This document shows, one piece after another, positions 4,479 through 61,450 of a stretch of DNA of 64,000 nucleotides. The notes beneath the pieces were generated by a model. It searched no databases, was not told where the DNA came from, and saw only the letters and a program-made list of their open reading frames with translations. The translations under genes were made by a program, and so were the position numbers. Positions within the stretch are counted from its first letter, which is position 1. The number at the start of each line of letters is the position of its first letter. The stretch lies in the NCBI GenBank assembly GCA_963790645.1, contig CAWBPS010000006.1, forward strand, positions 11,405 to 75,404. The letters are read 5' to 3'. The stretch is from Terriglobia bacterium. GTDB taxonomy: Bacteria; Acidobacteriota; Terriglobia; Terriglobales; Acidobacteriaceae.

Positions 4479-5446
4479 ACTGCGCCAACCACCCGGATAT
4501 CGAGAAGGTGGCATTTTGCCGCACCTGCGGAAAACCGCTGTGTGCCAACTGCACCCGTTCGGTGCACGGAGTGATTTATTGCGAGACCTGCCTGGCGGCG
4601 CGCCTGGAAGGCGTGCAGCCGAACGTGGCGCCCCCCGCCGCCGGCTTCGCTCCGGCAACCCCCATGGGTACTCCGGTCGCAGGCGGGGGTCCGAATCCCG
4701 CTCTGGCCGGCGTTTTGGCGGGCTTCTTTCCCTTCGGTGTGGGCGCCGTTTACACCGGTCAATATGCCAAGGGCCTGGCACACCTGGTCATCTTCACTCT
4801 GCTGATTCTGGGTGCGAGCAGCGGAAGCGACGCCATGGGCACGGTCTTCGGGCTGGCCATTGCCGGCTTCTACTTCTATCAGATCATCGATTCGGTACGC
4901 AGTGCCCGTGCCCTGCAGCTGGGACTGGCCCCGCCCGACCCTTTTGGATTGGCAACAACCTTTAGTGCGGGAGAGCGCGTGGACGTTAGCAAGGTTCCCG
5001 TGGGCGCCCTGGTGCTGATCGGTCTGGGCGTGATCTTCCTGCTGCATACCCTCGACATCTGGGATTTCAGTGCTCACCGCATCTGGCCCCTGGTGCTCAT
5101 TGGCATCGGCGGCTGGCTGCTGGTGCGACGCCTCGGCCTGGTAGGCGAAGTTCCGCCCGGATTTGACCGCATGCGCAGCTGCAGGCGCGGCTTGATGGGG
5201 CCGGCCATCCTGTTGACCCTGGGATTTCAATTCCTGCTGGACAGCATGGGCGTAATCCGCTTCGGCCGCACCCTGCCGCTGCTGCTGGTGGTGATTGGAC
5301 TGGTAAAGATTTTCCAGAGTACGGCTGGCCCGGACCCACTGCAGGGGCCGCCGCCATCAAGTGGAGCGCCGCCCTCCGGATTTACATCCGGTGAGGCGCA
5401 GCCCCCGTCATACGCGGAAGTTAAGCCGGAGGTAAAAAATGGCTAG
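4475..5446 (+). CDS. B-box-type zinc-ribbon membrane protein with TM2-like and LiaF-N-like TM segments
   Basis: ATGA overlap with the upstream stop. N-terminus is CANHPDIEKVAFCRTCGKPLCANCTRSVHGVIYCETC, followed by NPALAGVLAGFFPFGVGAVYTGQYAKG (TM2-like) and further TM hairpins. Confidence 0.6.
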   Translation: MNCANHPDIEKVAFCRTCGKPLCANCTRSVHGVIYCETCLAARLEGVQPNVAPPAAGFAPATPMGTPVAGGGPNPALAGVLAGFFPFGVGAVYTGQYAKGLAHLVIFTLLILGASSGSDAMGTVFGLAIAGFYFYQIIDSVRSARALQLGLAPPDPFGLATTFSAGERVDVSKVPVGALVLIGLGVIFLLHTLDIWDFSAHRIWPLVLIGIGGWLLVRRLGLVGEVPPGFDRMRSCRRGLMGPAILLTLGFQFLLDSMGVIRFGRTLPLLLVVIGLVKIFQSTAGPDPLQGPPPSSGAPPSGFTSGEAQPPSYAEVKPEVKNG

Positions 5447-6905
5447 CCCGGTGCAAGCCCCGCCCCCAATTGAGTATCGGCCGAGACAGCGACGTTCTGT
5501 GGCCGGTCCGGTAGTGATGATCCTGCTGGGACTGGTGCTGCTGCTCACCACCATGCGCGTGCTGCATCCGCAGCCCCTGCTGCACTGGTTCGGCACCTAC
5601 TGGCCCGCCCTGATCATTCTCTGGGGCGTCATCAAGCTGGTCGAGTACGAGCAGGCGAAAAGAGAAGGAACACGCCCTGCGGGGATCGGCGCCGGCGGAG
5701 TGCTGCTTCTATTTTTCCTGATCGTTTTCGGTTTGTCGGCGACCCAGGCTTCCCGCTTCAACTGGGATGAAATACGCAACCACATGCAGATGGGCGACGA
5801 CGATTTCACCCTGTTCGGACACAACTACAGTTATGACGACCAGCTGCAGCAGGACTTTCCCGCGGGCAGCAGCCTGCGTATCGTGAGTGATCGGGGAGCG
5901 GTGAACCTGACGGTTTCGGAAGACAACCAGATTCACGTGGCGGCGCACAAGCGGATCAACGCGGACAGCCAGGAAGAAGCCGACAAGTTCAATCCTTCCA
6001 CCAAGCCGCAAATCAGCGTCAGCGGCAATGTGATCACCTTGAACGCCAATACGCAGGGTGCCGGAGAGCACCCGGTTACGACCGATCTCGACGTCAGCGT
6101 ACCGCGCAAAGCGCCGGTCGTAATTACCTCCCGGCGCGGTGATGTCAGCGTGCTCGGACGCGACGGTGACGTTGAAGTTGGCAGCCAGCACGGCGACGTT
6201 GCCGCCTCTGATATCAACGGCAAGCTGGTACTCAACCTGTCCGGTGCCTCGGCACGGGTTTCGAACATTTCGGGTGATGTGTCGGTTCAGGGACGAGGGG
6301 ATGACATTTCCCTGGCTGACGTGAAAGGCGCGGCGCGCATCAACGGAGAGTTCGACACCATCAAGCTGGCAAAGATCGCCGGGCTGGTCGGCTTTAAATC
6401 CGCCCGCACCGACATGGAGTTTTCCAAACTGAACGGTGACCTCGATATGGATTCGGGCGATATGCGGGCCAGCGACCTGATGGGTCCATTCCGCCTGCTC
6501 ACCCGGTCGAAGGACATCCGGCTGAGCGGAGTCAATGGGGATGTGCGGGTGGAAAACGAAAACGGCGCAGTGGAAATCCACATGAGCAAGCTGGGCAACA
6601 TGCAGCTGAGCAACCGCAACAGTGACGTCCAGATCTACCTGCCCGACAAGGCCGGCTTCCAGGTGGACGCCCGCTCTCGCGGTGGGGAGATCGAATCCGA
6701 CTTCGCCGCCCTGAAAATCGACAACGGCGACGACCAAGCAACGGCCAGCGGCGCCGTGGGCGGCGGCGGTCCACACCTGGTGATCAACAACGAGCACGGC
6801 GGAATCGAACTGCGCAAGGGATCGTCGCTGGCCGAGGCGACGCCACCGCCCAAGCCGCCACGGGTCCCGGCAGTGCCCAAGGTACCGGTACCCACCGACA
6901 ACTAA
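5439..6905 (+). CDS. LiaF-like membrane protein with DUF4097 beta-helix repeat domain
   Basis: 8-nt overlap with the upstream gene. N-terminal TM helices are followed by many GDVSV/GDVEV/GDVRV repeats typical of DUF4097. Confidence 0.7.
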   Translation: MASPVQAPPPIEYRPRQRRSVAGPVVMILLGLVLLLTTMRVLHPQPLLHWFGTYWPALIILWGVIKLVEYEQAKREGTRPAGIGAGGVLLLFFLIVFGLSATQASRFNWDEIRNHMQMGDDDFTLFGHNYSYDDQLQQDFPAGSSLRIVSDRGAVNLTVSEDNQIHVAAHKRINADSQEEADKFNPSTKPQISVSGNVITLNANTQGAGEHPVTTDLDVSVPRKAPVVITSRRGDVSVLGRDGDVEVGSQHGDVAASDINGKLVLNLSGASARVSNISGDVSVQGRGDDISLADVKGAARINGEFDTIKLAKIAGLVGFKSARTDMEFSKLNGDLDMDSGDMRASDLMGPFRLLTRSKDIRLSGVNGDVRVENENGAVEIHMSKLGNMQLSNRNSDVQIYLPDKAGFQVDARSRGGEIESDFAALKIDNGDDQATASGAVGGGGPHLVINNEHGGIELRKGSSLAEATPPPKPPRVPAVPKVPVPTDN

Positions 6906-6907: not shown

Positions 6908-6961
6908 GGAGGACGGGCGTCCCGCCCGTCCAGCCGGGCGGGGACGCCCGGCCTCCATTTT
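6908..6961 (+). terminator. Compound GC-rich hairpin followed by ATTTT
   Basis: The sequence is GGAGG-[GGACGGGCG TCC CGCCCGTCC]-A-[GCCGGGCG GGGA CGCCCGGC]-CTCC ATTTT, directly after the operon stop at 6905. Confidence 0.4.
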
Positions 6962-7591: not shown

Positions 7592-7658
7592 CAATGTGGG
7601 CGCGAGCGTCCTCGCTCGTGCAGGCCGTGGCACGAGCGGGACGCTCGCGCCCACATTG
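7592..7658. repeat. Palindromic element family A, copy A1
   Basis: CAATGTGGGCGCGAGCGTCCTCGCTCGTGC - 8 nt - GCACGAGCGGGACGCTCGCGCCCACATTG. The same roughly 29-nt arms recur at 40651 and 53344. Confidence 0.85.
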
Positions 7659-8411: not shown

Positions 8412-9002
8412 ATGAACGATCGAGAGCAGGCGTGGTGTTTACTAACTGAGTTCACCCAGTCAGAAAGTTTGCGCAAGCACGGACTCGCGGTCGAGGCCTG
8501 CATGCGCGCCTACGCCCGCAAATTTGCTTCCGAGTCTCCTGAAAAAGAAGAGTTGTGGGGAGTGGTTGGATTGCTGCACGACTTCGATTACGAAAAATAT
8601 CCCAGCCTCGACGACCATCCCTACAAGGGCAACGAAATATTAAAAGAGCGGGGATATTCAGATGAAATCCGGCGCGCCATCATGTCGCACGCCGAATATT
8701 CCGGCGTGACCCGGGACTCCCCGATGGAGAAGGCCCTCTTCGCCTGCGACGAACTGGCTGGATTCATCACCGCCTGCGCCCTGGTGAAACCGGGAAAATC
8801 ACTGGCTGAAGTGGAGGCTAAATCAGTCCGAAAGAAGATGAAGGACAAAGCCTTCGCCCGCAGCGTAAAGCGCGAAGACATCGTAAACGGCGCGGCAGAT
8901 TTAGGGGTGGACCTGGAAGAGCACATCGCGTTCTGCATCGAGGCCATGAAGGGAATCGCAGACAAGTTAGGGCTGGACGGCGGCGCAGCGAAGTCGGCAT
9001 AA
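8412..9002 (+). CDS. HD/HDIG domain metal-dependent phosphohydrolase
   Basis: HG...LLHDFDYE...MSHAEY pattern in a 196-aa protein. Confidence 0.8.
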   Translation: MNDREQAWCLLTEFTQSESLRKHGLAVEACMRAYARKFASESPEKEELWGVVGLLHDFDYEKYPSLDDHPYKGNEILKERGYSDEIRRAIMSHAEYSGVTRDSPMEKALFACDELAGFITACALVKPGKSLAEVEAKSVRKKMKDKAFARSVKREDIVNGAADLGVDLEEHIAFCIEAMKGIADKLGLDGGAAKSA

Positions 9003-9009
9003 CCAGGTC

Positions 9010-9160
9010 CCGTGTGGGGACGGGTCTCCGAGCCGTCCATGCCGAGCAAGGCTCGGCTGGTGTTCTTTGCAAGACCACCAATACAGACTCGGGTCGCCAC
9101 CACCGAAATGCTGCCGAGCTGCGCTCGGCCTGGCCGGGTCGAAGGCCCGGCCCCACACGG
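9010..9160. repeat. REP/BIME-like inverted pair (GTGGGG heads)
   Basis: The termini CCGTGTGGGGACGG...CCGGCCCCACACGG are inverted. Internal hairpins are GCCGAGC AAG GCTCGGC and GCCGAGC TGC GCTCGGC. Confidence 0.75.
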
Positions 9161-9172
9161 CATTTCCAGTTC

Positions 9173-10747
9173 CTAGCGCAGCGCCTCCGCCACTTTTCCA
9201 CTGGCAATCAACTCCGCGATCCGGGCGAAATCCTGGTACATCACTCGATCTCTCTCCATGGTCGCGCACACTGAGCGAATTGCGGCGTGGGCGATCTGTC
9301 CGCGTTTCGAAGTCTTGAGCGGAGCGAGAAAGTCCAGGGCCTGGGCCGCCGCCATGGCTTCGATTGCCATTGCATTGCGCGAGTTCTCCACGATGCGCTT
9401 CAGTTTCAGAGCGGCGGTCATTCCCATGGACACGTAGTCTTCCTTGTTGCCGGAGGTGGTAATCGAATCCACCGAGGCGGGATGAGCCAGCACTTTGTTC
9501 TCGCTGACCAGCGAGGCGGCGGCTACCTGGGCCATCATGAATCCCGAGTTCAGGCCGGCGCCGGGCGCCAGAAATGGCGGCAGGCCTTCATTCAGCGCCG
9601 GGTTCACCAGGCGCTCCAACCTGCGCTCGGAAATGCCGGCCAGCGCGCTGAGCGCGATGCCCAGGAAGTCCAGGACGAAAGCCAGGGGCTGGCCGTGGAA
9701 ATTGCCGCCGGAGATGACATCGGCGTCTAGGGTTGCGGAGCTTCGCTCCGCTGGGCGGACGGGGGCGTCCGCCCCTACGTGGGCACTTTTTAAAAACACC
9801 AGGGGGTTGTCCACCGCCGAGTTGACTTCGATCTCCATCACCTCGCGACAGTGGGCCAGGGTGTCGCGCACCGCGCCATGCACTTGCGGCATGCAGCGCA
9901 GGGAGTAGGCGTCCTGCACGCGGTCACAGTCGCGATGCGAATCGCGCAGCGGACTGCCTTCGAGCATCTTGCGCAGGTTCGCGGCCGTCCGCAGCTGGCC
10001 CGGATGCGGACGAGCCTGATGGATGCGTTCGTCAAATGCCACATCAGTCCCCCGCAAGGCATCGAGCGAGAGCGCGCCGATCACATCCGCTGTGTCGGCC
10101 AGGATCTCGGCCGCCAGCAGCGCCAGTATTCCCACTGCCAGCATCGCCTGGGTTCCGTTGATGAGGGAAACGGCTTCCTTGGCTTCAAGCACCAGCGGCT
10201 TGATCTGGGCGCTCCGCATCGCCTCCGCGGCGGGAACGCGCATCGCTTTCTCGGTAAAACATTCGCCTTCACCGATGAGGGCCAGGGCCAGGTGCGCCAG
10301 GGGAGCCAGGTCCCCACTGGCTCCTACGCTGCCTTGCGATGGGACCATCGGAGTGACGCCGCGATTCAGCATCTCGCAAATCGTGTCGATGACAGCTCCG
10401 CGCACTCCGGAGTGCCCTTTGGAAAGTGAATTCGCGCGCAACAGCATCATGGCCCGCGTCTCGGCCACGGAAAGCGGTTCGCCGATACCGGCGGCATGTG
10501 AACGCACCAGGTTGACTTGCAACTCGCGAATCTGGTCGCCGGCAATGCGGACGTCGGCCAGCTTGCCCACACCCGTGGTGATGGCGTAAGACACGCGGTT
10601 CTCCGCGACTAGCGCGTCCACCACCGCGCGGGCCCGATCGACAGCCCCGCGGGCATCGGGATCAAGCAGAACGGGACGGCGCTCGACCGCCACTTCCCGG
10701 ACGGCTTCGAGAGTCAGGTCCTTGCCGTTGATGTGCAGGGCTTTCAA
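9173..10747 (-). CDS. hutH: Histidine ammonia-lyase
   Basis: 524 aa with the MIO-forming GSVGASGDLAPLAH motif, plus NPLVF and VISGGNFHGQP motifs. It carries an extra roughly 21-aa segment encoded by a REP-like repeat (see findings). Confidence 0.9.
   Translation of the reverse strand: MKALHINGKDLTLEAVREVAVERRPVLLDPDARGAVDRARAVVDALVAENRVSYAITTGVGKLADVRIAGDQIRELQVNLVRSHAAGIGEPLSVAETRAMMLLRANSLSKGHSGVRGAVIDTICEMLNRGVTPMVPSQGSVGASGDLAPLAHLALALIGEGECFTEKAMRVPAAEAMRSAQIKPLVLEAKEAVSLINGTQAMLAVGILALLAAEILADTADVIGALSLDALRGTDVAFDERIHQARPHPGQLRTAANLRKMLEGSPLRDSHRDCDRVQDAYSLRCMPQVHGAVRDTLAHCREVMEIEVNSAVDNPLVFLKSAHVGADAPVRPAERSSATLDADVISGGNFHGQPLAFVLDFLGIALSALAGISERRLERLVNPALNEGLPPFLAPGAGLNSGFMMAQVAAASLVSENKVLAHPASVDSITTSGNKEDYVSMGMTAALKLKRIVENSRNAMAIEAMAAAQALDFLAPLKTSKRGQIAHAAIRSVCATMERDRVMYQDFARIAELIASGKVAEALR
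9728..9793. repeat. REP-like half element inserted in-frame inside hutH
   Basis: GCGGAGCTTCGCTCCGC TGGGCGGACGGGGGCGTCCGCCCCTACGTGGG matches the right half of the 30264-30428 and 37151-37277 elements. It is 66 nt, or 22 codons. Confidence 0.8.
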
Positions 10748-10751
10748 GCGA

Positions 10752-10779
10752 GTTTCCGGTTTCCAGTTTCGGGTTTCAA
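10752..10779. repeat. Heptamer-periodic simple repeat
   Basis: GTTTCCG GTTTCCA GTTTCGG GTTTCAA lies between the hutH start and the thioesterase stop. Confidence 0.7.
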
Positions 10780-10787
10780 AGGCGCTC

Positions 10788-11234
10788 TTATTTTCCTGCT
10801 GCTTCGCGAAATGTCTTCAGAATATCTGGCGGCAGCTGTGCCGGTTTCATCTTCCCGTCAAGAATCATGTGCGTGGTCTCGCCTTCGGCCAGCAGTTCGC
10901 CGTCGTTGGCCCGCACCAGTTCGTAGCCAAAATGTATGAGGGACTCGCGAACGTTTCTCAGATGAGTGCGGACAATGATTTCGTCGTCATAACGCGCCGG
11001 CGCCTTGTAGCGGCAGCGGGCGTCCACCACTGGAATAAAGCATCCGTGGTCGCGTTCCATATCGCGATAAGTAAATCCCAGCTGACGCATGAGTTCGACG
11101 CGTCCGATTTCGAACCAGATGAAGTGATTGGCGTGATAAACCACGCCCATCTGGTCGGTCTCGGCGTAACGCACACGCACGCGGGTCTCCGAGATTACGC
11201 TGCTGCCGTGCGCGCTTGCTTGCGGTGGGTTCAC
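10788..11234 (-). CDS. Acyl-CoA thioesterase, YbgC/4HBT hot-dog family
   Basis: RVRYAETDQMGVVYHANHFIWFEIGRVELMR is a typical 4HBT N-terminus. There is a 4-nt overlap with the upstream hydratase stop. Confidence 0.85.
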   Translation of the reverse strand: MNPPQASAHGSSVISETRVRVRYAETDQMGVVYHANHFIWFEIGRVELMRQLGFTYRDMERDHGCFIPVVDARCRYKAPARYDDEIIVRTHLRNVRESLIHFGYELVRANDGELLAEGETTHMILDGKMKPAQLPPDILKTFREAAGK

Positions 11235-12016
11235 TTCGTACTCCAGCGCGGTTTACGTTTTTCCAGAAAGGACGTGATGCCTTCCCGAAAGTCGGCAGTG
11301 GTGCGAATGCGCGCGTTATCCTCAACCGCTTCTGCGATCTGCTGATCTAGCTGTTCTGCGATAAATCCGTTGATCAGGCGTTTGGCCGCCCGCACCGACG
11401 ATGGGCTGTTCTCCATGATCTGCGACGCCAGTTCGCGAGCTCGCGCGAGCAGGCGAGACGGCTCGACTACTTCGTTGACCAGGCCAAGAGCATGGGCCTC
11501 GGCGGCGTCAAACAACCGCCCGGTCAGCAGCAAGTCGCGGGCGACTTTATGTCCCACCTGCCACACCAGCATGGAGGAAACGATGGCCGGCACAAAACCG
11601 ATGCGGACTTCGGTGTAGCCGAACTTCGCCTCAGGCACAGCCAGAGTAAAGTCGCACATGGTGGCAAAGCCCGTGCCTCCGGCGATGGCAGCGCCGTTCA
11701 CGGCGGCGATGGTGGGCAGAGGAAAGTCGTAGATGCGGCGAAAAATGCGAGCCATGCGGGAGGAGTCCTGCACGTTCTCATCATGCGTTCTGCCCAGCAG
11801 GGCCTTCAATTCGTCGAGATCCATGCCCGCACAAAAGGCCTTGCCGGCACCGGTGAGGATGACGACCTGGGCCGGCGATCGCTCAACTTCGTCGAGAGCG
11901 GCAAGCAGTTCGTCCACCAGCGCGTGACTGATGGCATTGCGCTTCTCCGGCCGGTTAAGCGTAATGGTGGCAACGCCGGAATCGAACGCGAGCTGAATGG
12001 TGCTTGAATCCCATAT
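11231..12016 (-). CDS. Enoyl-CoA hydratase/isomerase family (methylglutaconyl-CoA hydratase-like); start codon unresolved
   Basis: Crotonase motifs are present (GAGKAFCAGMDL, AAVNGAAIAGG). The first canonical start (GTG, 11917) lies after the conserved VATITLNRPEKRNAIS strand, which is in-frame upstream. The 5' limit given here is a candidate ATA. See finding. Confidence 0.75.
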   Translation of the reverse strand: MWDSSTIQLAFDSGVATITLNRPEKRNAISHALVDELLAALDEVERSPAQVVILTGAGKAFCAGMDLDELKALLGRTHDENVQDSSRMARIFRRIYDFPLPTIAAVNGAAIAGGTGFATMCDFTLAVPEAKFGYTEVRIGFVPAIVSSMLVWQVGHKVARDLLLTGRLFDAAEAHALGLVNEVVEPSRLLARARELASQIMENSPSSVRAAKRLINGFIAEQLDQQIAEAVEDNARIRTTADFREGITSFLEKRKPRWSTK

Positions 12017-14791: not shown

Positions 14792-14830
14792 AGATTTCAG
14801 ATTGAAGATTCTCGATTTCAGATTTAAGAA
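14792..14830. repeat. Heptamer-periodic simple repeat (AGATTTC type)
   Basis: AGATTTC AGATTGA AGATTCT CGATTTC AGATTTA. It is related to the array at 16081. Confidence 0.7.
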
Positions 14831-16016: not shown

Positions 16017-16080
16017 CGATCTCCATTTAACCACAGAGGGTACGGAGGCGCACAGCTACCGGGGATTGCGGGCGTGATCG

Positions 16081-16191
16081 CAGATTGTAGATTCCAGATT
16101 GTAGATTTCAGATCTCAGATCTCAGATTTCAGATCTCAGTTCTCAGATTTGCTGCTGGGCTTGAAAAATCTGCAATCTAAAATCTGCAATC
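16081..16191. repeat. Heptamer array (10 units) with an inverted partner, forming a long imperfect hairpin
   Basis: Positions 16081-16150 read CAGATTG TAGATTC CAGATTG TAGATTT CAGATCT CAGATCT CAGATTT CAGATCT CAGTTCT CAGATTT. The inverted AATCTGC AATCTAA AATCTGC AATC lies at 16164-16191. Confidence 0.85.
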
Positions 16192-21007: not shown

Positions 21008-21434
21008 TCCGCCTATCTCCGATCATAGAAGAGGCCAGTACGGCGGGCAAGGCACCAACTGAAGTCATCAACTGAAATCACGTGGGGACAGCCGCCCTCG
21101 GCTGTCCGGTCGAGTGAAACTCGACGAGTCTCTGCCGGAGACCAGCAGCGGAGCTTCTCTCCGCCGGACAGCCGAAGTGTCATCCTGAGCGGAGCAACTG
21201 TTTCGCGAAGCGAAGCAGCTACGGAGTCGAAGGACCCCTATATTCACGCGGATGCTGGCACTTCAAGAGAGAGCGCAGGACGTTCCTTCTTCCTGAGGTA
21301 GGGGTCCTTCGACTTCGTGAGCCATTCGCAAGCAAATGAGCTCACTCCGCTTGATTGGATAACGACGTTGGCTCGTCGCGGAGTAGAGTGGTATGCGATG
21401 AACACGACCAAGGCTCGTGAGAGGAGCCAACGTC

Positions 21435-29634: not shown

Positions 29635-29639
29635 AGAAT

Positions 29640-29774
29640 CACGTGGGGACAGCGCGCCCCGGCTGTCCGGTCGAGTGAAACTCGACAAGTTTTTATCTTT
29701 GCCAGGCACCGCACGGTCGACACCACAGCGGAGCTTCGCTCCGCCGGACCGCCGGGGGCGGCTGTCCCCACGTG
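29640..29774. repeat. Family B REP-like element, intact copy B2
   Basis: The termini are CACGTGGGGACAGCG...GCTGTCCCCACGTG. Internal hairpins are GTCGAGT GAA ACTCGAC and GCGGAGC TTCG CTCCGC. Confidence 0.85.
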
Positions 29775-29819
29775 GTCTTTTACTGGACTGGCTTTCCCTG
29801 GCAACACTACAATCGCGGC

Positions 29820-30233
29820 ATGGCTTCCCTGCCTGAGTCCGATCCCATCGCTGACCTGCTCAAGCGCTCCCGCACCATCGCGGTCGTGGGGCTCTCCAAC
29901 AGCCCGCTGCGTCCCAGCCACGGAGTTTCCGCCTATATGCAGACGCAGGGCTACCGCATCATTCCGGTGAATCCGAACATCCATGGATCTCTGGGAGAGA
30001 AGGCGTACCCGTCGCTGCTCGAGGTCCCGGAGAAGATCGATATCGTGAATATCTTCCGCCGGTCAGAGTTTGTGGACGACGCGGTCGATCAGGCCATCCG
30101 GCTGAAGGTGCCGGTGATCTGGATGCAAGAAGGGGTGGTCAACGAGAGTGCCGCCCAGAAGGCCCGCGGGGCAGGCATCTTCGTGATTATGGACCGCTGC
30201 ATTCTGAAAGAGCACAAAGCGCGCTTCGGGTGA
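29820..30233 (+). CDS. CoA-binding domain protein (YccU/YneT-like)
   Basis: SRTIAVVGLSNSPLRPSHGVSAYMQTQGYRIIPVNP is the CoA_binding_2 signature. ATG at 29820 chosen. Confidence 0.85.
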   Translation: MASLPESDPIADLLKRSRTIAVVGLSNSPLRPSHGVSAYMQTQGYRIIPVNPNIHGSLGEKAYPSLLEVPEKIDIVNIFRRSEFVDDAVDQAIRLKVPVIWMQEGVVNESAAQKARGAGIFVIMDRCILKEHKARFG

Positions 30234-30263
30234 TTCCGGCACGACCTCACGAACGCCTCGAAC

Positions 30264-30428
30264 CACGTAGGCCCGGACGCCCTCGTCCGGGCGGGCGAGC
30301 GGAGCTCGCCGGTTGTTGAGTGCCGAAACGAACGCGCTCCCAAACCGCGCTCGCGCATCGGTGATTCCTGGAGTACACAGGAGCGGAGCTTCGCTCCGCC
30401 GGGCGGGTGAGACACCCGCCCCTACGTG
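30264..30428. repeat. Family D REP/BIME-like element, copy D1
   Basis: The element reads CACGTAGG-[CCCGGACG CCC TCGTCCGGG]-CGGGCGAGCGGAGCTCGCC ... GCGGAGC TTCG CTCCGC-[GGGCGGGTG AGA CACCCGCCC]-CTACGTG. Confidence 0.85.
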
Positions 30429-30447
30429 TTCTGTGGTGGAATTGCTC

Positions 30448-33170: not shown

Positions 33171-33203
33171 TTCACCACAGAGGCACAGAGTCACAGAGAA
33201 AAC
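33171..33203. repeat. CACAGAG octamer repeat, left flank of the GxxExxY gene
   Basis: TTCACCACAGAGGCACAGAGTCACAGAGAAAAC. It is inverted relative to 33610-33641. Confidence 0.8.
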
Positions 33204-33231: not shown

Positions 33232-33651
33232 TCAAAGAACTCTTCTGATTATGCCTTGCGTCAACAAGGGCACGTTGAAGTTGATCAGAAGGCCGACTCT
33301 CTTGCCGGTCAATTTCAGGTAAGTCAAGAGCTGTGCCTCGTGGATTGGTAGAAGTCTTTCGACTGCTTTCAATTCCAGGAGGACCTCGTCTTGCACGATC
33401 AAGTCGATCTTGTACCCGCAGTCCAATTTGAGCCCCTTATAGAGCAGGGGCAGTGGCACTTGACGTTTGCAGTCTAAGCCGCGGAGATGGAGTTCGTGGC
33501 ACAGACACTCCTCATATGCCGACTCAAGGAGTCCCGGACCCAAGTTGCGGTGCACCTCGACGGCGGCGGCGCCGATGATAGGGCTGGTTCTGGGATCCTT
33601 TCCGTCTTCGATTTCTCTGTGTCTCTGTGTCTCTGTGGTGATAAGCCTCAC
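33232..33651 (-). CDS. GxxExxY family protein (PD-(D/E)XK-like)
   Basis: [25 protein letters not shown]...DLIV...LELKAV are family hallmarks. The first roughly 12 codons (TTETQRHRE) are encoded by the CACAGAG repeat. Confidence 0.85.
   Translation of the reverse strand: [139 protein letters not shown]
33610..33641. repeat. CACAGAG octamer repeat, right flank of the GxxExxY gene (inside its 5' end)
   Basis: GATTTCTCTGTGTCTCTGTGTCTCTGTGGTGA is the reverse complement of TCACCACAGAGACACAGAGACACAGAGAAATC. Confidence 0.8.
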
Positions 33652-35853: not shown

Positions 35854-35861
35854 CCACGAAC

Positions 35862-35986
35862 CACGTAGGGGCGGGTGCCCTCACCTGTCCGGCCGGGCAA
35901 AGCCCGGCAAGGTTTTCTGCTGACACTATCTTAAACCCAAGGCGAGCTGCGCTCGCCCGCCCGGACGAGGCGTCCGGGCCTACGTG
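35862..35986. repeat. Family D element, copy D3 (inverted relative to D2)
   Basis: Its reverse complement aligns with 37151-37277 over the whole length, at roughly 85% identity by eye. The terminus CCTACGTGG overlaps the last codons and the TAG stop of murG. Confidence 0.85.
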
Positions 35987-37074
35987 GATGGCGGCTGATC
36001 GTCCGTTTCTATCCCTGCCAGCCGCGCCGCCATTGCGGTTATGTCGCGTGCTGCATCGGGGTGGGCCAGCTTGCGCGCGGCTGCACTCATGCGTTGCAGA
36101 CGGCCCGAATCGCCCAGCAGCGCGGCGATGGTATCGGCCAGCCAGACCCGCTCAAGCTTCGTTTCTTCCACCACCACGGCCGCGCCGGCGCGTTCCAGCG
36201 CCTGGGCATTGACCCGCTGATGATCGTCTGCCGCGAGCGGGAAAGGAACAAAAACGGCCGGCTTCCCCGCCGCGGTGATTTCCGCCACCGTGCTCGCACC
36301 CGAGCGGCACAGCAGCAAATCGGCCCGGGCGAAGACCCCGGGCATGTCCGTGATAAAGGGAGAGACTTCAGATGACAAGCCTGCCTGCTGATACGCAGCC
36401 TGTGCGTCATTGAAGCCGCGCTCGCCCGTCTGATGGATGATGTGGATATCCGGTATCTGTTTCACCAGTTCCGGCAAACACTGAACCATGGCCTGGTTGA
36501 TGGCATTGGCCCCCTGGCTTCCGCCGAAAACCAGCAGGGTAGGATTCGCGTTTCCGGTAGCGCGCCCCGCGATCTGGAAAAACGCCTCGCGCACCGGCAC
36601 CCCGGTGACTTCTGCGTTGCGGAAATATTCTGCTGTCTCTTCAAAGTGAACCGCCGCGCCTGAAACCCATCTCGCCACCATGCGATTGGCGAAGCCGGGC
36701 ACCACGTTGGGTTCGAAGGCCAGGGTCGGAGTTCCCCTCAGAATGGCCGCCAGCATGGCCGGGCCGGACGCGTATCCGCCCACCCCGATCACAATATCGG
36801 GTTGGAACTCAGCCAGAATACTGCGAGCGTCCCAGACCGCGCGAGGAAGATCGAACAGAGTCTTCAGCCGCGTCTTGAGGCTGACCTTGTTGAGCGCGCC
36901 TACCTGAACCAATCGCAACGGAAATCCCGCCGCCGGAACCAGCCGGTTCTCGATGCCGCGCGCGGTTCCGACAAACAGTACCTCCGCGCCATACCGCTTC
37001 TGTAGTTCGTGGGCAATGGCCAGGGCGGGAATTACGTGTCCGCCGGTGCCGCCCCCCGCCAGAATTGCCCGCAT
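35980..37074 (-). CDS. murG: Undecaprenyldiphospho-muramoylpentapeptide beta-N-acetylglucosaminyltransferase
   Basis: [32 protein letters not shown] and the C-terminal GT28 domain. Confidence 0.95.
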
Positions 37075-37150
37075 GATCTGACTATAAACCGGAAGTTGTG
37101 GAGTCAGATCACGGCAAGTTGACAGTTAAGGAGCATGCGCCATCGCGACC

Positions 37151-37277
37151 CACGTAGGCCCGGACGCCCTCGTCCGGGCGGGCGAGCGCAGCTCGCCGAG
37201 ATGTTTACAGGTAGGAAAGCAGAAAACCCTGCCGGGCGTTGCCCGGCCGGGCGGGTGGGGACACCCGCCCCTACGTG
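37151..37277. repeat. Family D element, copy D2
   Basis: The element reads CACGTAGGCCCGGACGCCCTCGTCCGGGCGGGCGAGCGCAGCTCGCC ... CCGGGCGGGTGGGGACACCCGCCCCTACGTG. Confidence 0.85.
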
Positions 37278-37317
37278 GGCGGTGTTGTGCCAGACTGCTC
37301 ATCGATATACTCAGACC

Positions 37318-39234: not shown

Positions 39235-39436
39235 GTCATCCTGAGCGAAATCGGCCCATTCGCTTGCGAATGGGCCGATGAAGTCGAAGGACCCCTACCT
39301 CAGGAAACAGGTGTCCCGCATTTTTCTTGAAGTGCGATCGACAAAACATGAGGTTGCCAGCATCCGCGTGAACATAGGGGTCCTTCGACTCCGGGGCTGC
39401 TTCGCAAAGCGAAGCAGCCCCTGCGCTCAGGATGAC
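39235..39436. repeat. Family C cruciform element, copy C2
   Basis: The element reads GTCATCCTGAGCG-[hairpin]-GAAGTCGAAGGACCCCTA ... TAGGGGTCCTTCGAC-[hairpin]-CGCTCAGGATGAC. Confidence 0.9.
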
Positions 39437-39455
39437 ATTTCCAAAATGAAGTGCG

Positions 39456-40650: not shown

Positions 40651-40757
40651 CAATGTGGGCGCGAGCGCCCCGCTCGTGCGGGGGTGCCACAAACCACGTG
40701 GGACACGTGGTTTGTGTGATGTCACAGAGGCACGAGCGGGGCGCTCGCGCCTACATT
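40651..40757. repeat. Family A palindromic element, copy A2 (with nested inner palindrome)
   Basis: The arms are CAATGTGGGCGCGAGCGCCCCGCTCGTGC ... GCACGAGCGGGGCGCTCGCGCCTACATTG. The inner palindrome is CACAAACCACGTG GGA CACGTGGTTTGTG. The right terminus supplies the murD stop. Confidence 0.85.
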
Positions 40758-42103
40758 GCGGACAGGGCGTGTACTACTTCTTTGAATACTCTGCCCCGGT
40801 GCTCGTAGTTCCGGAACTGGTCGAAGCTGGCACAGGCCGGAGCCAGCAGCACGACGTCTCCTGCTGCGGCGATCGCCGAGGCGCGCCTCAGCGCGGTTTC
40901 AAGCGTCTCGGAGTGGTCGATTTCCACGCCTTTGATCTGGGACTCGATCTTTTCCGCAGCCGCTCCAATCGTATAGACCCGCTTGACCCGCTGCCGCAGC
41001 AGTTCGTTGAGCTGTGTGTAGTCACTGTCTTTGTCCTTGCCGCCCAGAATCAGGTGGACATTTGCCGGGAACGATTCCAGGGCCTTGATCGTCGCATCCA
41101 CATTGGTGGCCTTGGAGTCGTTGTAATATTCAACGCCGCGAATGGTCGCGACATACTCCAGCCGGTGTTCGACCGCTTTGAAGCCTCGTACCGCCTGGCT
41201 GATGCGTGCAGGCTCGCAACCCATAAGCGCGCCGACGCAAACCGCGGCCAGAACGTTCTCCACGTTGTGGCCTCCCTTGAGAGGGATTTCCGAAGCCAGC
41301 ATGATCTCGCGCTGCCCTTTGCCATCGCGAAGAAGGACGCGGCCATCGCGGACGCACGCACCTTGCTCAACTTCTTTCTTGCGGCTGAACCAGAAGACTT
41401 GCGCCCGCGTACGGCCGGCCAGTCCGGCGCAGGTGGGATCGTCGGCATTCAGGACCGCGAAATCTTCCGCCTTCTGGTTCTCAAAAATGCGGGCCTTCGC
41501 GTTCGTATAGGCCTCGAACGTGCGGTGACGGTCGAGGTGGTCAGGCGTGATGTTGAGCACCACGGCAACTTTTGGACGAAAGGTCTGGATCGTTTCCAGC
41601 TGGAAGCTCGATACTTCCAGAACTACCAGGGTATTGGCTTTGGCGCGCTCGACCAGCGAGATTGCTGGTGTGCCGATATTGCCGCCGACCAAGGTCGGGA
41701 AGCCACCCGCCGCAACGATTTCACCCGCCAGCGTCGTGGTCGTGGTCTTGCCGTTCGAACCGGTGATGGCGACGATGTTCCCGGGCAGGAATTGTGACGC
41801 CAGCTCAATCTCGCCGATCACGGGCTCGCCGAGGGCACGGGCCTGCACCAGCGGGGGCGAGTCCACCGGGACGCCGGGGCTGACCACGATCAGGTCCTGC
41901 CCTCGAAATGTGCGCTCGCCGTGTCCACCGGTTTCTACAGCAATGCCGTGATCGAGCAGCAGTGGGATTTCTTCCCCCAGCTGGTCTTGCGGCTTGGCGT
42001 CGGAGACCGTGACCTTCGCGCCCCGGGACTTCAGAAACAAAGCCGAGGCCACGCCGGATTTGCCCAGCCCGACGACGAGAACGCGTTTGTTGGCAAGATC
42101 CAT
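40751..42103 (-). CDS. murD: UDP-N-acetylmuramoylalanine--D-glutamate ligase
   Basis: VLVVGLGKSGVA, AITGSNGKTTTT, and Mur ligase middle and C-terminal domains. Confidence 0.95.
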   Translation of the reverse strand: MDLANKRVLVVGLGKSGVASALFLKSRGAKVTVSDAKPQDQLGEEIPLLLDHGIAVETGGHGERTFRGQDLIVVSPGVPVDSPPLVQARALGEPVIGEIELASQFLPGNIVAITGSNGKTTTTTLAGEIVAAGGFPTLVGGNIGTPAISLVERAKANTLVVLEVSSFQLETIQTFRPKVAVVLNITPDHLDRHRTFEAYTNAKARIFENQKAEDFAVLNADDPTCAGLAGRTRAQVFWFSRKKEVEQGACVRDGRVLLRDGKGQREIMLASEIPLKGGHNVENVLAAVCVGALMGCEPARISQAVRGFKAVEHRLEYVATIRGVEYYNDSKATNVDATIKALESFPANVHLILGGKDKDSDYTQLNELLRQRVKRVYTIGAAAEKIESQIKGVEIDHSETLETALRRASAIAAAGDVVLLAPACASFDQFRNYEHRGRVFKEVVHALSAM

Positions 42104-46301: not shown

Positions 46302-46370
46302 TGTTCTGGATTCTAGAGCACTGGGGCGCTTACGCAAGTGTGATCCCAGGGGCAATCGTGAAGCGAAAGT

Positions 46371-46516
46371 GTCATCCTGAGCGAAGCTGAAGGTTTCGCT
46401 TGCGAAACGTTCAGCGGAGTCGAAGGACCCCTACCCACACGTACTACAGTTACCAAGGGGTCCTTCGACTGCATGTGAGGCCCGCAAGGCGGGCCTCACA
46501 CTTCGCTCAGGATGAC
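46371..46516. repeat. Family C cruciform element, copy C3 (ftsI-murE junction)
   Basis: The element reads GTCATCCTGAGCG..GAGTCGAAGGACCCCTA ... AAGGGGTCCTTCGAC..CGCTCAGGATGAC. Confidence 0.9.
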
Positions 46517-46550
46517 GACGATTGCCAGGTTGTCATGACGGCGATCGCGT

Positions 46551-48740: not shown

Positions 48741-48802
48741 GGTCCAGGCCCCTTAGACAAACATGGCGGCCCACCGTTGCGGGAGCCGCCAATCGGACTC
48801 TT

Positions 48803-48876
48803 GTAGCGCCGGCGTCTCGCCGGCTGTCTGGCGGGCGTCCCGCCCGCCAATCGGGCCGACCGGAGGGCAGCAGTAC
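48803..48876. repeat. Family F element, copy F1
   Basis: GTAGCGCCGGCGTCTCGCCGGCTGTCTGGCGGGCGTCCCGCCCGCCAATCGGGCCGACCGGAGG... It is a direct repeat of 49735-49808. Confidence 0.85.
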
Positions 48877-48902
48877 TTGAAGATCCGGCCGGTCGTGCTT
48901 CC

Positions 48903-49657: not shown

Positions 49658-49734
49658 AACTTGTCTTGCCAAATTCACCCCGGCGCGCACTCACGTCCGT
49701 ACCGGGTTCCCGGCAGGTTTTCCGGGTAAACTTT

Positions 49735-49808
49735 GTAGCGCCGGCGTCTCGCCGGCTGTCCGGCGGGCGTCCCGCCCGCCTATCGGGCCGGCCGGAGGCC
49801 GGCGCTAC
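49735..49808. repeat. Family F element, copy F2
   Basis: GTAGCGCCGGCGTCTCGCCGGCTGTCCGGCGGGCGTCCCGCCCGCCTATCGGGCCGGCCGGAGGCCGGCGCTAC. It abuts the rsmH TAG stop. Confidence 0.85.
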
Positions 49809-50744
49809 CTAAATTCTCTCCGCCGCTCGCATCTTCGCGCTGCGCGCCCGCGGATTGCGTTCGATCTCTTCTTCCCCGGCGGTCACTGGCTTTTTGGTCA
49901 GCAACTTGTAGTGACCCTGCTTCGCGCCTTCGCGGAAGGCATCTTTCACGATGCGGTCCTCCAGCGAGTGGAAACTGATGATCACTATCCTTCCGCCTGC
50001 TTTCAGCACTCGCGGGGCCGCTTTCAGCAACTCCTGCAAGTCGTCCAGTTCATGGTTTACGAAGATTCGGAGAGCTTGAAAGGTCCTTGTCGCGGGATGA
50101 ATTCTTCTTTCCGCCTGATTCATTGGCCGGGCCGCGGCCGATACCACAGCTGCAAGTTCCGCAGTTGTACGTATTGGCCGCGACCGGACAATGGCTCTGG
50201 CGATTCTCCGCGACCTCCTTTCCTCACCGAATTCGTAAATCAGATTGGCGAGTGTGACCTCGTCCGTCTGATTTACCACTTGTTCGGCGGTGGGCCCGGC
50301 TTGCGTATTCATTCGCATGTCGAGCGCGCCTTCCGCCTGAAAGCTAAAGCCTCGCGATGGTGTGTCCAGCTGCAGGCTGCTTACGCCGAGGTCTGCCAGC
50401 AGTCCGTCGGCTGACGCCGCGCCGAACCGCTCTCCGATCTCCGCGAAGGAACCATGCAGAAGAACCACTTCAGGCCAACCCTCCCCCCCGGAAGAAGTCA
50501 GCCTGACGCGGGCCTCATCGAGCGCCGCAGGGTCCTTATCGAGCCCAATCAAATGACCCGGTGCGCCGAGGCGTTTTGCGATTTCTAAACTGTGCCCGCC
50601 CAGGCCCACCGTGGCGTCGATATACGTCCCGCCGCGCTGGATAGCTAAAAAGTCGATCGCTTCTTTTAAAAGAACCGGGACATGGCCACTCTTGTTTCCA
50701 CCATGTCCACCCCGCTCGGGGGTGTTTGTTGAACCCTCGTCCAC
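49809..50744 (-). CDS. rsmH: 16S rRNA (cytosine1402-N4)-methyltransferase
   Basis: HVPVLLKEAIDFL, DATVGLGGHS, DLGVSSLQLD, ISFHSLEDRIVK. Confidence 0.95.
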   Translation of the reverse strand: MDEGSTNTPERGGHGGNKSGHVPVLLKEAIDFLAIQRGGTYIDATVGLGGHSLEIAKRLGAPGHLIGLDKDPAALDEARVRLTSSGGEGWPEVVLLHGSFAEIGERFGAASADGLLADLGVSSLQLDTPSRGFSFQAEGALDMRMNTQAGPTAEQVVNQTDEVTLANLIYEFGEERRSRRIARAIVRSRPIRTTAELAAVVSAAARPMNQAERRIHPATRTFQALRIFVNHELDDLQELLKAAPRVLKAGGRIVIISFHSLEDRIVKDAFREGAKQGHYKLLTKKPVTAGEEEIERNPRARSAKMRAAERI

Positions 50745-53350: not shown

Positions 53351-53489
53351 GCGCGAGCGCCTTCGCTCGTGCTCCCGCGGCACGGACCAAGCCCTTCGCA
53401 ACTACATCATCCCAGATGGAACGACCTTGGACGCTGGCGCGGAGTCGTCCGTGGCACTGCAGCACGAGCGGGACGCTCGCGCCCACATT
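53344..53489. repeat. Family A palindromic element, copy A3
   Basis: The arms are AATGTAGGCGCGAGCGCCTTCGCTCGTGC ... GCACGAGCGGGACGCTCGCGCCCACATT. The left head supplies the final ATG codon and the TAG stop of the SRPBCC gene. Confidence 0.85.
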
Positions 53490-55521: not shown

Positions 55522-55723
55522 GTCATCCTGAGCGGAGTGCTGTCCATTCGCTCCGCGAATGGACAGACGGAGTCGAAGGACCCCTATACGCTCGCGGTCG
55601 CTGAGATTTCGTGGGGAGGCGCCGGTGAACACGCCCGTGCCAATCGGCTTTGATCCAGCTATAGGGGTCCTTCGACTGCGTGACTGCTTCGCAAAGCGAA
55701 GCAGTCATTCCGCTCAGGATGAC
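55522..55723. repeat. Family C cruciform element, copy C4
   Basis: The element reads GTCATCCTGAGCG-[CTGTCCATTCGC TCC GCGAATGGACAG]-ACGGAGTCGAAGGACCCCTAT ... ATAGGGGTCCTTCGAC-[TGACTGCTTCGC AAA GCGAAGCAGTCA]-TTCCGCTCAGGATGAC. Confidence 0.9.
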
Positions 55724-55736
55724 AAATCAGAAGAAA

Positions 55737-61303: not shown

Positions 61304-61450
61304 GTCATCCCGAGCGCAGTCTCGAGCCGCGCTTGCGCGGTGAGAGCAAGTCGAGGGACCCCTGCGCTACCACAAATCTATCCGTTCATAGGGGCCCTTC
61401 GACTCCGTAAGTGCTTCGCGAGGCGAAGCACTTACTTCGCTCAGGATGAC
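61304..61450. repeat. Family C cruciform element, copy C5 (diverged)
   Basis: The element reads GTCATCCCGAGCG...GTCGAGGGACCCCTG ... TAGGGGCCCTTCGAC-[AAGTGCTTCGC GAG GCGAAGCACTT]-ACTTCGCTCAGGATGAC. Confidence 0.85.

Follow-up and report, generated by a model that had tools for sequence, protein, structure and literature searches.

How a palindromic repeat of a kind mostly dispersed between genes can lie within the reading frame of an enzyme gene is the question raised by hutH, the histidine ammonia-lyase (HAL) gene found on the minus strand at 9173-10747 of a 64-kb stretch of DNA from a Terriglobales bacterium (contig CAWBPS010000006.1; the whole stretch of 64,000 nucleotides that was analysed is referred to here as the window). 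An earlier note on this DNA had described a repeat of the repetitive extragenic palindromic (REP) type between the conserved NPLVF and VISGGNF motifs of the encoded protein, and this description has been borne out by a repeat alignment, a covariance model and the open reading frame (ORF). The explanation proposed here, which we consider very probable, is that one REP unit, of a family linked to REP-associated tyrosine transposases (RAYTs), is translated, that it lengthens a permissive hairpin loop as a flexible stretch, and that the enzyme tolerates it and remains functional.

The single REP unit in hutH is located at 9730-9785 (minus strand), where the covariance model R1 matches it with 69.8 bits (E 1.9e-13), and the repeat sequence originally quoted was found at 9735-9783. 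Between the two motifs, the ORF reads NPLVF-LKSAHVGADAPVRPAERSSATLDAD-VISGGNF. The repeat unit proper takes up 16 codons, H323-A338 (9734-9781), which would be translated as HVGADAPVRPAERSSA, a peptide in which Gly, Ala, Pro, Ser, and Arg are abundant. Its conserved head, which reads CCCACGTAGGG in coding orientation (9773-9783, minus), is a GTAG-type tag, and in the alignment of units described below the C, G, T, and G within CAYGTRG are invariant. RNA folding and pair counts define two hairpins: hairpin 1 (9753-9774, minus) holds a 9-bp stem, GGGCGGACG/CGTCCGCCC, and a 4-nt loop, and hairpin 2 (9735-9751, minus) holds a 7-bp stem, GCGGAGC/GCTCCGC, and the loop GAA. On the mRNA strand, the 71-nt segment folds as these two hairpins with a free energy of -32.3 kcal/mol (z = -4.17). 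The unit preserves the reading frame and holds no stop, as had been claimed and as the ORF of 524 codons demonstrates; the element itself is open in five of its six frames.

The hutH segment (9733-9783) aligns with 29728-29775 and 37231-37278 (83% and 75%, respectively, over 9735-9782), 30381-30428, 62790-62837, and 9113-9160, and in reverse complement with 35861-35910 and 37149-37194. It is indeed the same module as the right halves of the intergenic elements at 30264-30428 and 37151-37277, whose right arms have now been placed at 30378-30432 and 37226-37281. The similarity survives a proper alignment of 14 units as well as the covariance model. In this alignment, all units follow a common plan, in which the head CAYGTRGGG is accompanied by a 9-bp stem closed by 3-4 loop nucleotides and by a 7-bp stem whose loop has 3 nt (consensus GCGGAGC GAA GCTCCGC). 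Paired cells amount to 94%, compared with 29-46% in slid controls, and 10 of the 16 base pairs have changed on both sides. The covariation score is 0.505 over the 14 units (0.04-0.17 in slid controls, 0.16 in shuffles), and the helix of hairpin 2 is 100% paired, with covariation in four of its seven pairs. The model R1 was built from this alignment and run unfiltered over the whole window; it gave 50-74 bits for the 14 training units, while the next match reached 27 bits. The hutH copy was among the training sequences, and its own score is therefore partly given by construction.

The window holds 15 units, 14 of them intergenic, at eight sites, seven of which are inverted pairs (six intact and one truncated) of about 130-175 nt. 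The hutH unit represents half of the usual inverted pair, being the sole singleton among the eight sites and the only unit within a long real gene. An inverted pair of diverged units, resembling a REPIN (a REP doublet forming a hairpin), is located at 9007-9163, between the hutH stop codon and a convergent HD-domain gene (R1 50.5 bits at 9007-9062, plus, and 53.4 bits at 9108-9163, minus; inverted repeat found). Units just downstream of hutH are also present in the orthologous loci L001, L002, L008, L016, L041, L023, L029, and L044 (locus region 5560-5790), where L-numbers denote fetched loci, with coordinates given within the locus, and the P-numbers used below denote protein clusters or their representatives. 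The remaining intact pairs are intergenic and located at 29636-29778 (64.3 and 72.0 bits; inverted repeat found), 30260-30432 (72.1 and 66.9 bits), 35858-35990 (71.4 and 65.6 bits), 37147-37281 (71.9 and 67.0 bits), and 62699-62840 (69.9 and 70.8 bits; inverted repeat found), the second and the fourth being those cited in the earlier note. The truncated pair, at 21075-21183, consists of a left arm with 73.6 bits (21075-21130) and a right arm with 13.7 bits (21143-21183) that is cut where a second repeat family abuts. A scan of the whole window against Rfam at gathering thresholds matched no family, and the repeat therefore does not belong to any curated RNA family.

The size of the insert depends on the protein used for comparison. 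In the HAL from Pseudomonas putida (PDB 1GKM), the two motifs are five residues apart (NPLVF-AAEGD-VISGGNF), in agreement with the earlier note, and in the phmmer alignment to this enzyme the window protein shows an insert of 20 residues. Compared to the nearest repeat-free orthologs, which have a 10-residue loop (FKNSRNGDAD), the window protein is longer by a net 15 residues (45 nt), and 45 extra nt are also counted against the nearest repeat-free gene, P0014 (locus L081). The former estimate of 63-66 nt was therefore slightly high with respect to the 45 nt and 60 nt found against the nearest orthologs and P. putida, respectively, although the length is, as had been stated, a multiple of three. 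No segment of equal length occurs in the close repeat-free orthologs, whose loop has 10 residues.

The repeat is not private to the window genome. The 120 closest protein clusters, 89-100% identical and originating from Terriglobales metagenome-assembled genomes and soil metagenomes, include 22 with a 10-residue loop (FKNSRDGDAD, LKNSKNGEAD) and 98 with a long loop containing variants of HVGADAPVRPAERSSA, whose length variants are all multiples of three. Among 80 species-level representatives from GTDB, 55 present an ancestral-looking loop of 8-12 residues (ITDAKNAEGD, VKNPKAMDGEGD), L055 and L057 have loops of 16 and 5 residues, and 23, counted as repeat-bearing, hold a long loop of at least 19 residues. 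R1 detects the unit within hutH in 11 of these 23 long-loop loci (L001, L002, L007, L008, L010, L011, L016, L018, L039, L041, and L066). The most variable codon of the insert across the 98 repeat-bearing clusters is placed in the loop of hairpin 1, and reads L, P, H, or S. An addition of 24 nt (TCCTTCGACTTCGCTCAGGACAGGC) in this same loop has been found in P0003 (L082 4239-5837), P0031, P0053, P0058, and P0114; it resembles the joined ends of the second repeat family of the window, and a similar extended loop is observed in the unit that L041 carries in its HD-domain gene.

The assignment of the gene to histidine ammonia-lyases is based on the ORF list, on the NCBIfam equivalog TIGR01225 (656.4 bits; cut-off 539.15), on NF006871 (681 bits; cut-off 524), and on a phmmer match to the P. 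putida enzyme (1GKM; E 1.9e-119). The start codon is TTG and the protein has 524 amino acids. It keeps the ASG triad that forms the 4-methylideneimidazole-5-one (MIO) group (GASGDLAPL at 142-150), and Y54, N197, Y281, R284, F350, and E416 are invariant or nearly invariant in an alignment of 123 sequences that comprises the protein and its homologs. The catalytic roles of the conserved residues are those that we take from HAL enzymology, and the mutant PDB entries Y280F, F329A/G, and D145A, retrieved as Foldseek matches, fit this assignment. Pairs of hutH genes exhibit ratios of non-synonymous to synonymous substitution rates (dN/dS, Nei-Gojobori) of 0.037-0.083, the same for pairs of two repeat-bearing genes as for pairs of one repeat-bearing and one repeat-free gene. 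With the loop excluded, the window gene differs from the repeat-free P0014 in 67 synonymous and 0 non-synonymous codons; against P0003, 110 differences are synonymous and 12 non-synonymous. The insert is present in dozens of independent assemblies (ENA, JGI, and NCBI), and the synteny of the locus is conserved in orthologous contigs. These substitution patterns indicate that hutH is under purifying selection. Taken together with the profile matches, the intact catalytic motifs, and the structure model described below, they make the repeat-bearing HutH look functional, its activity with the insert being deduced from the purifying selection.

Regarding the genes around it, hutH is the last of a same-strand run (9173-11917, minus) that includes a 4HBT thioesterase (10788-11234) and an enoyl-CoA hydratase (11231-11917), and genes for an HMG-CoA-lyase-like protein and a carboxyltransferase are found upstream in orthologous contigs. 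Neither hutU nor hutI is adjacent to it, a neighbourhood that is unusual for a histidine-utilisation gene.

A structure model, as proposed in the earlier note, places the insert at the tip of a β-hairpin. This AlphaFold2 (AF2) model was computed from 123 rows (117 diverse representatives, all less than 57% identical to the query, plus six close orthologs), and has a mean predicted local distance difference test score (pLDDT) of 95.4 and a predicted template modelling score (pTM) of 0.94; an input of 59 close orthologs (at least 89% identical) gave a pLDDT of 37 and was unusable. The only low-confidence blocks, with means of 60 and 58, are found at residues 321-340 and coincide with the repeat-encoded H323-A338, which is flanked by strands at 316-319 and 342-345. 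Foldseek superposes the model on P. putida HAL (1GKJ) with a TM score of 0.94, a root-mean-square deviation of 2.0 Å, and 43% identity. The base of the hairpin carries the asparagine of NPL and the phenylalanine of GGNF (Phe329 in P. putida), in keeping with the mutant entries F329A and F329G.

The length of this loop also varies in the family at large. When 148 diverse representatives of the HAL family, with 41-80% identity to the window protein, were aligned, the loop has 3-10 residues in 133 members (mode 5) and at least 12 in the other 15, and six members hold unrelated segments of 23-28 residues, namely P0160 (591 aa; 25 residues), P0218 (570 aa; 28 residues), and four proteins of 647-692 aa (23-26 residues). 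The occurrence of such unrelated loops in distant members argues that the site is intrinsically permissive to changes in length, and the insertion in hutH would be tolerated for this reason.

The hutH gene is not alone in carrying a unit. The HD-domain gene convergent with hutH, which in the window (8412-9002) has no insert, holds an in-frame unit in two species, L041 (6122-6201) and L051 (6176-6231), in a loop between ARKF and ELWG. This loop is also length-variable, since the segment WCLL...HDFDY has 49-66 residues in 24 orthologs, and 87 and 103 with the repeat. A peptidase of the PD40/S9 type in L057 contains an in-frame unit as well, and the units of these HD-domain and peptidase genes are read in the same frame as that of hutH. 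One exact-pattern scan of metagenomic contigs (hairpin 2 plus 2 nt) yielded 120 loci, with 199 units according to R1. A unit was considered intragenic when a stop-to-stop frame of at least 50-60 codons extended on both sides of it, the translation was inspected, and the gene was verified with Pfam. By these rules, 21 of the 120 loci (17.5%) hold at least one unit in-frame within a Pfam-verified gene, a share that is only indicative, as is any percentage from this sample, given its small size, its anchoring on a single hairpin-2 subtype, and the choice of loci by their order in the database. In several of these cases, the alignment of the Pfam domain spans the unit or is split by it.

The genes concerned encode MnmG (L102, with two sites, and L186, with the same first site), AlaS (L086, with five units, and L165, at the same site), MnmE (L131), Tgt (L101, holding a whole inverted pair), DusB (L112), SelA (L168), and SelD (L113). 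Others encode LpxB (L100), NadD (L183), a protoporphyrinogen/amine oxidase (L184), a molybdopterin oxidoreductase (L160), a PAD_porph deiminase (L095), an S9 peptidase (L097), a zinc-type dehydrogenase (L135), a Y-family polymerase (L192), an MFS transporter (L197), a DUF255 protein (L175), a C26 amidotransferase (L191), and a DNA methylase (L104). Two cases, a ParB gene (L098) and a kinase-like fragment (L195), are ambiguous, and the units of L136, L126, L149, L157, L177, L173, L119, L153, L129, and L123 were rejected, as the frame is non-coding or the unit lies upstream of the real start. All reading frames occur among the intragenic units, and they are used unevenly: for sense units, the HVG..AERSSA frame accounts for about 13 gene-sites, versus 2 and 1 for the other two (chi-square against equal use, p about 3e-4), while antisense units are mostly read as AAELRSAGQP.AAVPT. 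A 48-aa synthetic peptide made of three REP translations, when compared with a protein database, retrieved only 21 short unannotated ORFs (E 0.5-10) and no domain proteins. The presence of copies in other ORFs, which the earlier note had suggested looking for, together with their bias in reading frame, makes hutH one instance of a general habit of this repeat family.

[quoted passage not shown] In L165, two of the units flank a short tandem array (GHVETTTGHLENG).

The association with a transposase has been found in metagenomic contigs carrying the same family. A scan of all the fetched DNA for RAYT-like ORFs, based on the HUH motif PDHVHMI and a Y..NP motif, revealed ORFs of about 160 aa, where complete, at seven metagenomic loci (L096, L114, L122, L142, L180, L196, and L201), all of which directly adjoin units of the family. 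The seven loci belong to the 120 repeat-anchored loci. In L096 (9000-9557, minus), L122 (about 4603-5094, plus), and L180 (about 5553-6049, plus), the RAYT-like Y1 transposase gene, of about 164 aa, is bracketed in a constant manner, with an inverted pair directly upstream of it and a lone inverted unit directly downstream. The ORFs of L096 and L122 pass the cut-off of 23 bits of the Pfam family Y1_Tnp (PF01797) at 29 and 32 bits, that of L142 stays below it at 18.1 bits, and those of L114, L180, L196, and L201 were identified by their motifs alone. Compared with the PDB, the L096 protein matches the TnpA of ISDra2 (2XM3; E 4e-4) and the TnpA-REP of Escherichia coli (4ER8; E 6e-4). Two genes bracketed by REP pairs in the window itself were considered as RAYT candidates and rejected, since one of them (29772-30233) encodes a CoA-binding protein and the other (35980-37074) a MurG-like glycosyltransferase.

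Because the family flanks a RAYT-like Y1 gene in related contigs, the element can be classified as of the REP/REPIN type, with an arrangement that, judged from gene order in those contigs, corresponds to a REPtron/TIRtron. The other features known from REPs are found too, including a GC-rich palindrome with a GTAG-like tag (head CAYGTRGGG, stems of 9 and 7 bp), many dispersed copies that are mostly extragenic (14 of 15 in the window, and about 86% of the 199 metagenomic units outside verified genes), inverted pairs with a short spacer at seven of the eight window sites, and a cognate RAYT flanked by repeats, in the metagenomic loci and not in the window.

REP/REPIN-RAYT systems have been described by Nunvar (2010, PMC2817692) and by Bertels and Rainey (2011, PMC3116915), and GTAG-type intragenic REPs, with their REPtron/TIRtron systems, by Di Nocera, De Gregorio and Rocco (2013, PMC3733652). 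The present family shares with these systems the GC-rich hairpin with a 5' GTAG/GTGG tag, the inverted pairs dispersed between genes, and the bracketed small HUH Y1 gene. According to PMC3733652, intragenic GTAG and CGTC REPs occur in Opitutus, Thauera, Xanthomonas, and others, and those of other phyla are enriched in tRNA-related and repair genes; similarly, a minority of the copies studied here are in-frame in genes, notably those for a tRNA synthetase, tRNA modification, and DNA repair. The same work reports that cultivated Acidobacteria encode a distinct group of transposases, whose flanking repeats share a GGGGWSAS motif and in some cases form double palindromes, and the common head of the present family, GGGGACAG, fits this motif. 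However, the present unit differs from GTAG REPs in having two hairpins (about 48 nt) instead of one, in an intragenic share that appears high (17% of the loci in this sample), in the presence/absence polymorphism and the several stem subfamilies of the hutH site, and in its host, an uncultured member of the Terriglobales. Intragenic REPs in Terriglobales or other Acidobacteria, or in hutH, are described neither in PMC3733652 and its supplements nor in the other open-access literature found, which is not proof of novelty. In-frame repeat inserts are thus known in kind, and are not yet reported for Acidobacteria. Less expected are the shuffled polymorphism of repeat-bearing and repeat-free genes, the several stem subfamilies at one site, and the intact hairpins at saturated synonymous divergence.

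The likeness to Rickettsia palindromic elements (RPEs) that the earlier note had pointed out holds as an analogy and not as membership. RPEs (Ogata et al. 2000), in the account given of them in PMC3733652, are found in-frame in genes, bear a CGTC tag, and have no dedicated transposase. In both systems, a palindromic repeat lies in-frame in the gene for a functional protein, the fold of which tolerates the added peptide. In contrast, the sequence families are unrelated, RPE-1 is longer, the element described here has a GTAG-type tag and a cognate transposase, and the hosts differ, that of RPEs being obligately intracellular with a reduced genome and the present one a free-living soil bacterium. 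Membership in the RPE family was therefore rejected, on account of the GTAG/GTGG tag instead of CGTC, the lack of an Rfam match in the window, and the Terriglobales host. Small mobile sequences have also been reported within enterobacterial genes (Delihas 2007, PMC2759123). [quoted passage not shown] Nevertheless, MITEs have terminal inverted repeats for transposases of the DDE type and usually target-site duplications, whereas the copies inspected here have no flanking duplication and their enzyme is a Y1 HUH transposase. A DDE-derived MITE was rejected on these grounds, no direct duplication being seen by inspection around the pairs 29636-29778, 30260-30432, 37147-37281, and 62699-62840. As for the host protein, P. 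putida HutH (PDB 1B8F and 1GKM) has the same fold, MIO-forming ASG triad, and catalytic motifs, the window protein differing from it in 20 additional residues at the tip of the NPLVF/VISGGNF hairpin, 16 of them repeat-encoded.

In neighbour-joining trees of hutH, including one of 81 taxa, repeat-free and repeat-bearing alleles are interleaved even at the tips, and pairs of opposite loop type are formed by P0014 and the window protein, by L028 and P0115, and by the P0080 and P0012 groups (100% bootstrap each), as well as by the repeat-free L033 and the repeat-bearing L039 (98%). The nucleotide identity between the window gene and P0014 is a mosaic, in which 100%-identical blocks (e.g., columns 0-124 and 351-619) alternate with blocks of about 8% divergence. 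The 160 nt that precede the loop and the 80 nt that follow it contain a single mismatch each, whereas the loop flanks differ at 12 of their 19 aligned positions. The flanks of the window loop match those of other repeat-bearing alleles, and the repeat-free loops are alike (86% identity) and similar to the ancestral type. Most simply, these data would be read as two loop forms of old age, which recombination over short tracts exchanges among backgrounds. The repeat-free loop cannot have been restored by an exact excision, because it holds sequence that is absent from the repeat-bearing alleles. The comparison of repeat-bearing and repeat-free sisters identified no exact insertion point or target motif, as the flanks of the loop evolve too fast, and the idea of an AAT target was rejected, since the codons preceding the unit do not support it.

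Four versions of stem 1, each of them perfectly complementary, are found at the hutH site in different lineages. Type A, with the 5' arm GGGCGGACG, is present in the window, L001, L002, and L082; type B (GGACGGGCG) in L007, L010, L018, and L203; type C (GGACGGCCG) in L011 and L066; and type D (GGACAGCCG) in L039 and L041. The stem of type A is also found in intergenic copies and in other genes, with near-exact matches to particular hutH variants; for instance, the methyltransferase gene in L104 holds a CCCA-loop form, 'HVGADAHVRP', that is nearly identical to one of them. By exact counts of stem arms, types B, C, and D also occur commonly among the metagenomic loci sampled, D being the commonest. 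Between hutH lineages, the synonymous divergence (dS) of the host gene is 0.35-1.7, and in the same gene pairs the repeat DNA diverges by 2-21% and the third codon positions by 22-55%. As some hairpins are perfect despite the saturated synonymous divergence of the host gene, these intact hairpins are no neutral remains of a single ancient event; they would be constrained as nucleic acid, homogenised against other copies, or re-inserted.

These data allow the alternative explanations to be weighed. An ordinary lineage-specific extension of the loop, with a merely coincidental resemblance to the repeat, might be suspected from the unrelated loops of 23-28 residues at the same site in other HAL members, and GC-rich coding DNA can look palindromic. 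This explanation deserves hardly any weight, given that the hutH unit scores as highly with R1 (69.8 bits, E 2e-13) as the intergenic copies, that head, both stems, spacing, and loop are all common to the family, that an exact 44-mer of the insert has zero expected chance matches, and that orthologous hutH inserts were matched independently in 11 species. A gene killed by the insertion, a neofunctionalised paralog, or an assembly artefact is also very improbable, even though the insert is placed between the NPL and GGNF motifs, which we take to carry the active-site residues Asn313 and Phe329 (P. putida numbering), about 10 residues away from it. The dN/dS of 0.04-0.08, the 67:0 ratio of synonymous to non-synonymous differences, and the retention of all the catalytic motifs speak against a dead gene, and so does, for an artefact too, the recurrence of the insert in so many independent assemblies within a conserved synteny.

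Two other explanations concern the history and the maintenance of the unit. Recurrent insertion, in which the hutH loop would be a hot spot, or the unit would be swapped by the transposase or by ectopic gene conversion, without a single ancient vertical insertion, is a serious possibility, although we place it short of probable. It would account for the interleaving of repeat-bearing and repeat-free species in the 81-taxon tree (with L033 and L039 joined at 98% bootstrap), for the four perfect stem types, which differ even between the sisters L018 and L048 and place P0015 (type B) among type A, for the abundance of the same stem types elsewhere, and for perfect hairpins at a host dS of at least 1. 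The numbers of loop residues to the left and right of the unit also vary by lineage (4+5, 5+3, 5+5, and 6+3), the flanks of repeat-bearing loci hold more of the other units (16 in 23 loci, versus 7 in 57), and for both AlaS and MnmG, two unrelated contigs carry units at a shared position. Nevertheless, every hutH copy has the same orientation and reading frame, no target-site motif was identified, and in the window clade the repeat-bearing flanks are homologous (K-S/T/N ... S/T-L-E/D-A-D) and far removed in sequence from the repeat-free loop, in agreement with a single origin followed by recombination. A function of the hairpins in hutH, by ribosome pausing, mRNA protection or processing, or protein binding, with the repeat allele kept by selection, seems unlikely. 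It is suggested by the two stable hairpins (-32.3 kcal/mol, z = -4.2), by a repeat DNA that diverges less than third codon positions and the gene average, by variation concentrated in the hairpin loops, by the majority status of the repeat-bearing allele (98 of the 120 closest clusters), and by the second inverted pair directly after the hutH stop codon in several species. On the other hand, repeat-free alleles persist under the same purifying selection, the hairpins have been destroyed in about half of the long-loop lineages, and the element occurs in about 20 functionally unrelated genes, which points to a filter of tolerance and not to a gene-specific role.

The preferred explanation, namely that a RAYT-associated REP unit is translated and tolerated in the HutH loop, also has observations that weigh against it. 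No RAYT gene was found in the 64-kb window, either by the motif scan or by inspection of the genes bracketed by repeats, and the link with the transposase comes from unbinned metagenomic contigs that carry the same repeat family. A second copy with the stem type of the hutH unit is not present in the window either. In the long-loop loci where R1 does not detect the unit the hairpins are decayed to varying degrees, and decay in about half of the long-loop lineages suggests that constraint on the nucleic acid is not universal. Sister lineages with unlike stem subfamilies speak for replacement or re-insertion, whereas the constancy of orientation, frame, and approximate position across all lineages speaks for a common origin or a strong filter. 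The trees are neighbour-joining trees of one recombining gene, with the loop left out, and their deep nodes have low bootstrap. The AF2 model is a monomer while HAL is a tetramer, in which the loop might touch a subunit interface or the active-site entrance. Finally, the translation of the insert and the activity of the enzyme are what we infer from the gene sequence.

According to the preferred explanation, a cognate RAYT-like HUH tyrosine transposase, as carried by relatives, presumably mobilised the family, and one unit now occupies, with the frame kept, codons that specify the β-hairpin tip between the NPL and GGNF motifs. The 16-residue peptide would then protrude as a flexible loop, and the insert would be a tolerated passenger. 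Its survival could be due to the intrinsic permissiveness of the loop to changes in length, to the fact that five of the six frames are open and that the one used gives a small, hydrophilic peptide, and to selection, which would purge disruptive insertions. The two old loop haplotypes may have been moved by short-tract homologous recombination between near-identical hutH backgrounds. In many lineages, the element would be kept 'alive', either constrained as nucleic acid or renewed from other copies through conversion or re-insertion, while elsewhere it would decay into ordinary loop sequence.

A broader view, which we put forward tentatively and regard as rather doubtful, is that this acidobacterial REPIN-RAYT system regularly inhabits coding sequences over the long term, that intact hairpins are maintained there, even where synonymous sites are saturated, by RAYT-dependent replacement, by conversion from the repeat pool of the genome, or by selection on the hairpin, and that permissive loops such as those of HutH, AlaS, and MnmG are recurrent landing sites. 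If so, the family would systematically generate and refresh surface loops in housekeeping enzymes, and the hutH dimorphism would be a trans-species polymorphism instead of a frozen accident.

In-frame palindromic repeats represent a rare natural experiment in protein loop insertion, and have been discussed mainly for Rickettsia and for a few proteobacterial and verrucomicrobial genomes. The case presented here adds the Terriglobales, an abundant soil lineage, with an identifiable RAYT-like transposase, and about one in six of the sampled repeat loci has a copy in a conserved gene, including those for tRNA-modification enzymes, the alanyl-tRNA synthetase, LpxB, and NadD. As natural pairs of a repeat-bearing and a repeat-free hutH allele encode proteins identical outside the loop, both the neutrality of the insert and a role of the hairpins at the RNA level become directly testable. 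Perfect hairpins at saturated synonymous divergence bear on the debate over the active maintenance of REPINs, and such inserts inflate the apparent loop diversity of metagenomic protein catalogues.

Other repeats are present in the window. The second short-repeat family, which consists of TAGGGGTCCTTCGACT, a variable hairpin, and TTCGCTCAGGATGACA, occurs mostly as inverted pairs (21179-21351, 39259-39441, 46367-46517, 55548-55724, and 61388-61451), and abuts and truncates the right arm of the REP pair at 21143-21183. Peptides typical of this family (FDSAQGRL, GSFDSRNRFASESV) adjoin the REP units inside NadD (L183) and the methyltransferase (L104). A third palindromic family (CAATGTGGGCGCGAGCGCCCCGCTCGTGC) is found at 7620-7658, 40651-40758 (an inverted pair), and 53444-53489; with its head of the ATGTGGG type, it may be distantly related to the REP family, R1 giving just 20-21 bits. 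A GC-rich direct repeat of 81 nt with internal palindromes (CGGGCGTCCCGCCCG) is located at 48801-48881 and 49733-49813 (89% identity), and a 28-mer at 6914-6941 is related to it. Low-complexity arrays with a period of 7 nt (AGATTKY) extend over 14792-14829 and 16068-16147, and CACAGAG-rich inverted repeats of 30 nt, separated by 410 nt, are placed at 33172-33201 and 33612-33641. In addition, the regions 56452-57440 and 59056-60008 share three collinear blocks with 71-77% nucleotide identity at an offset of about 2.6 kb, which suggests tandem paralogous genes.

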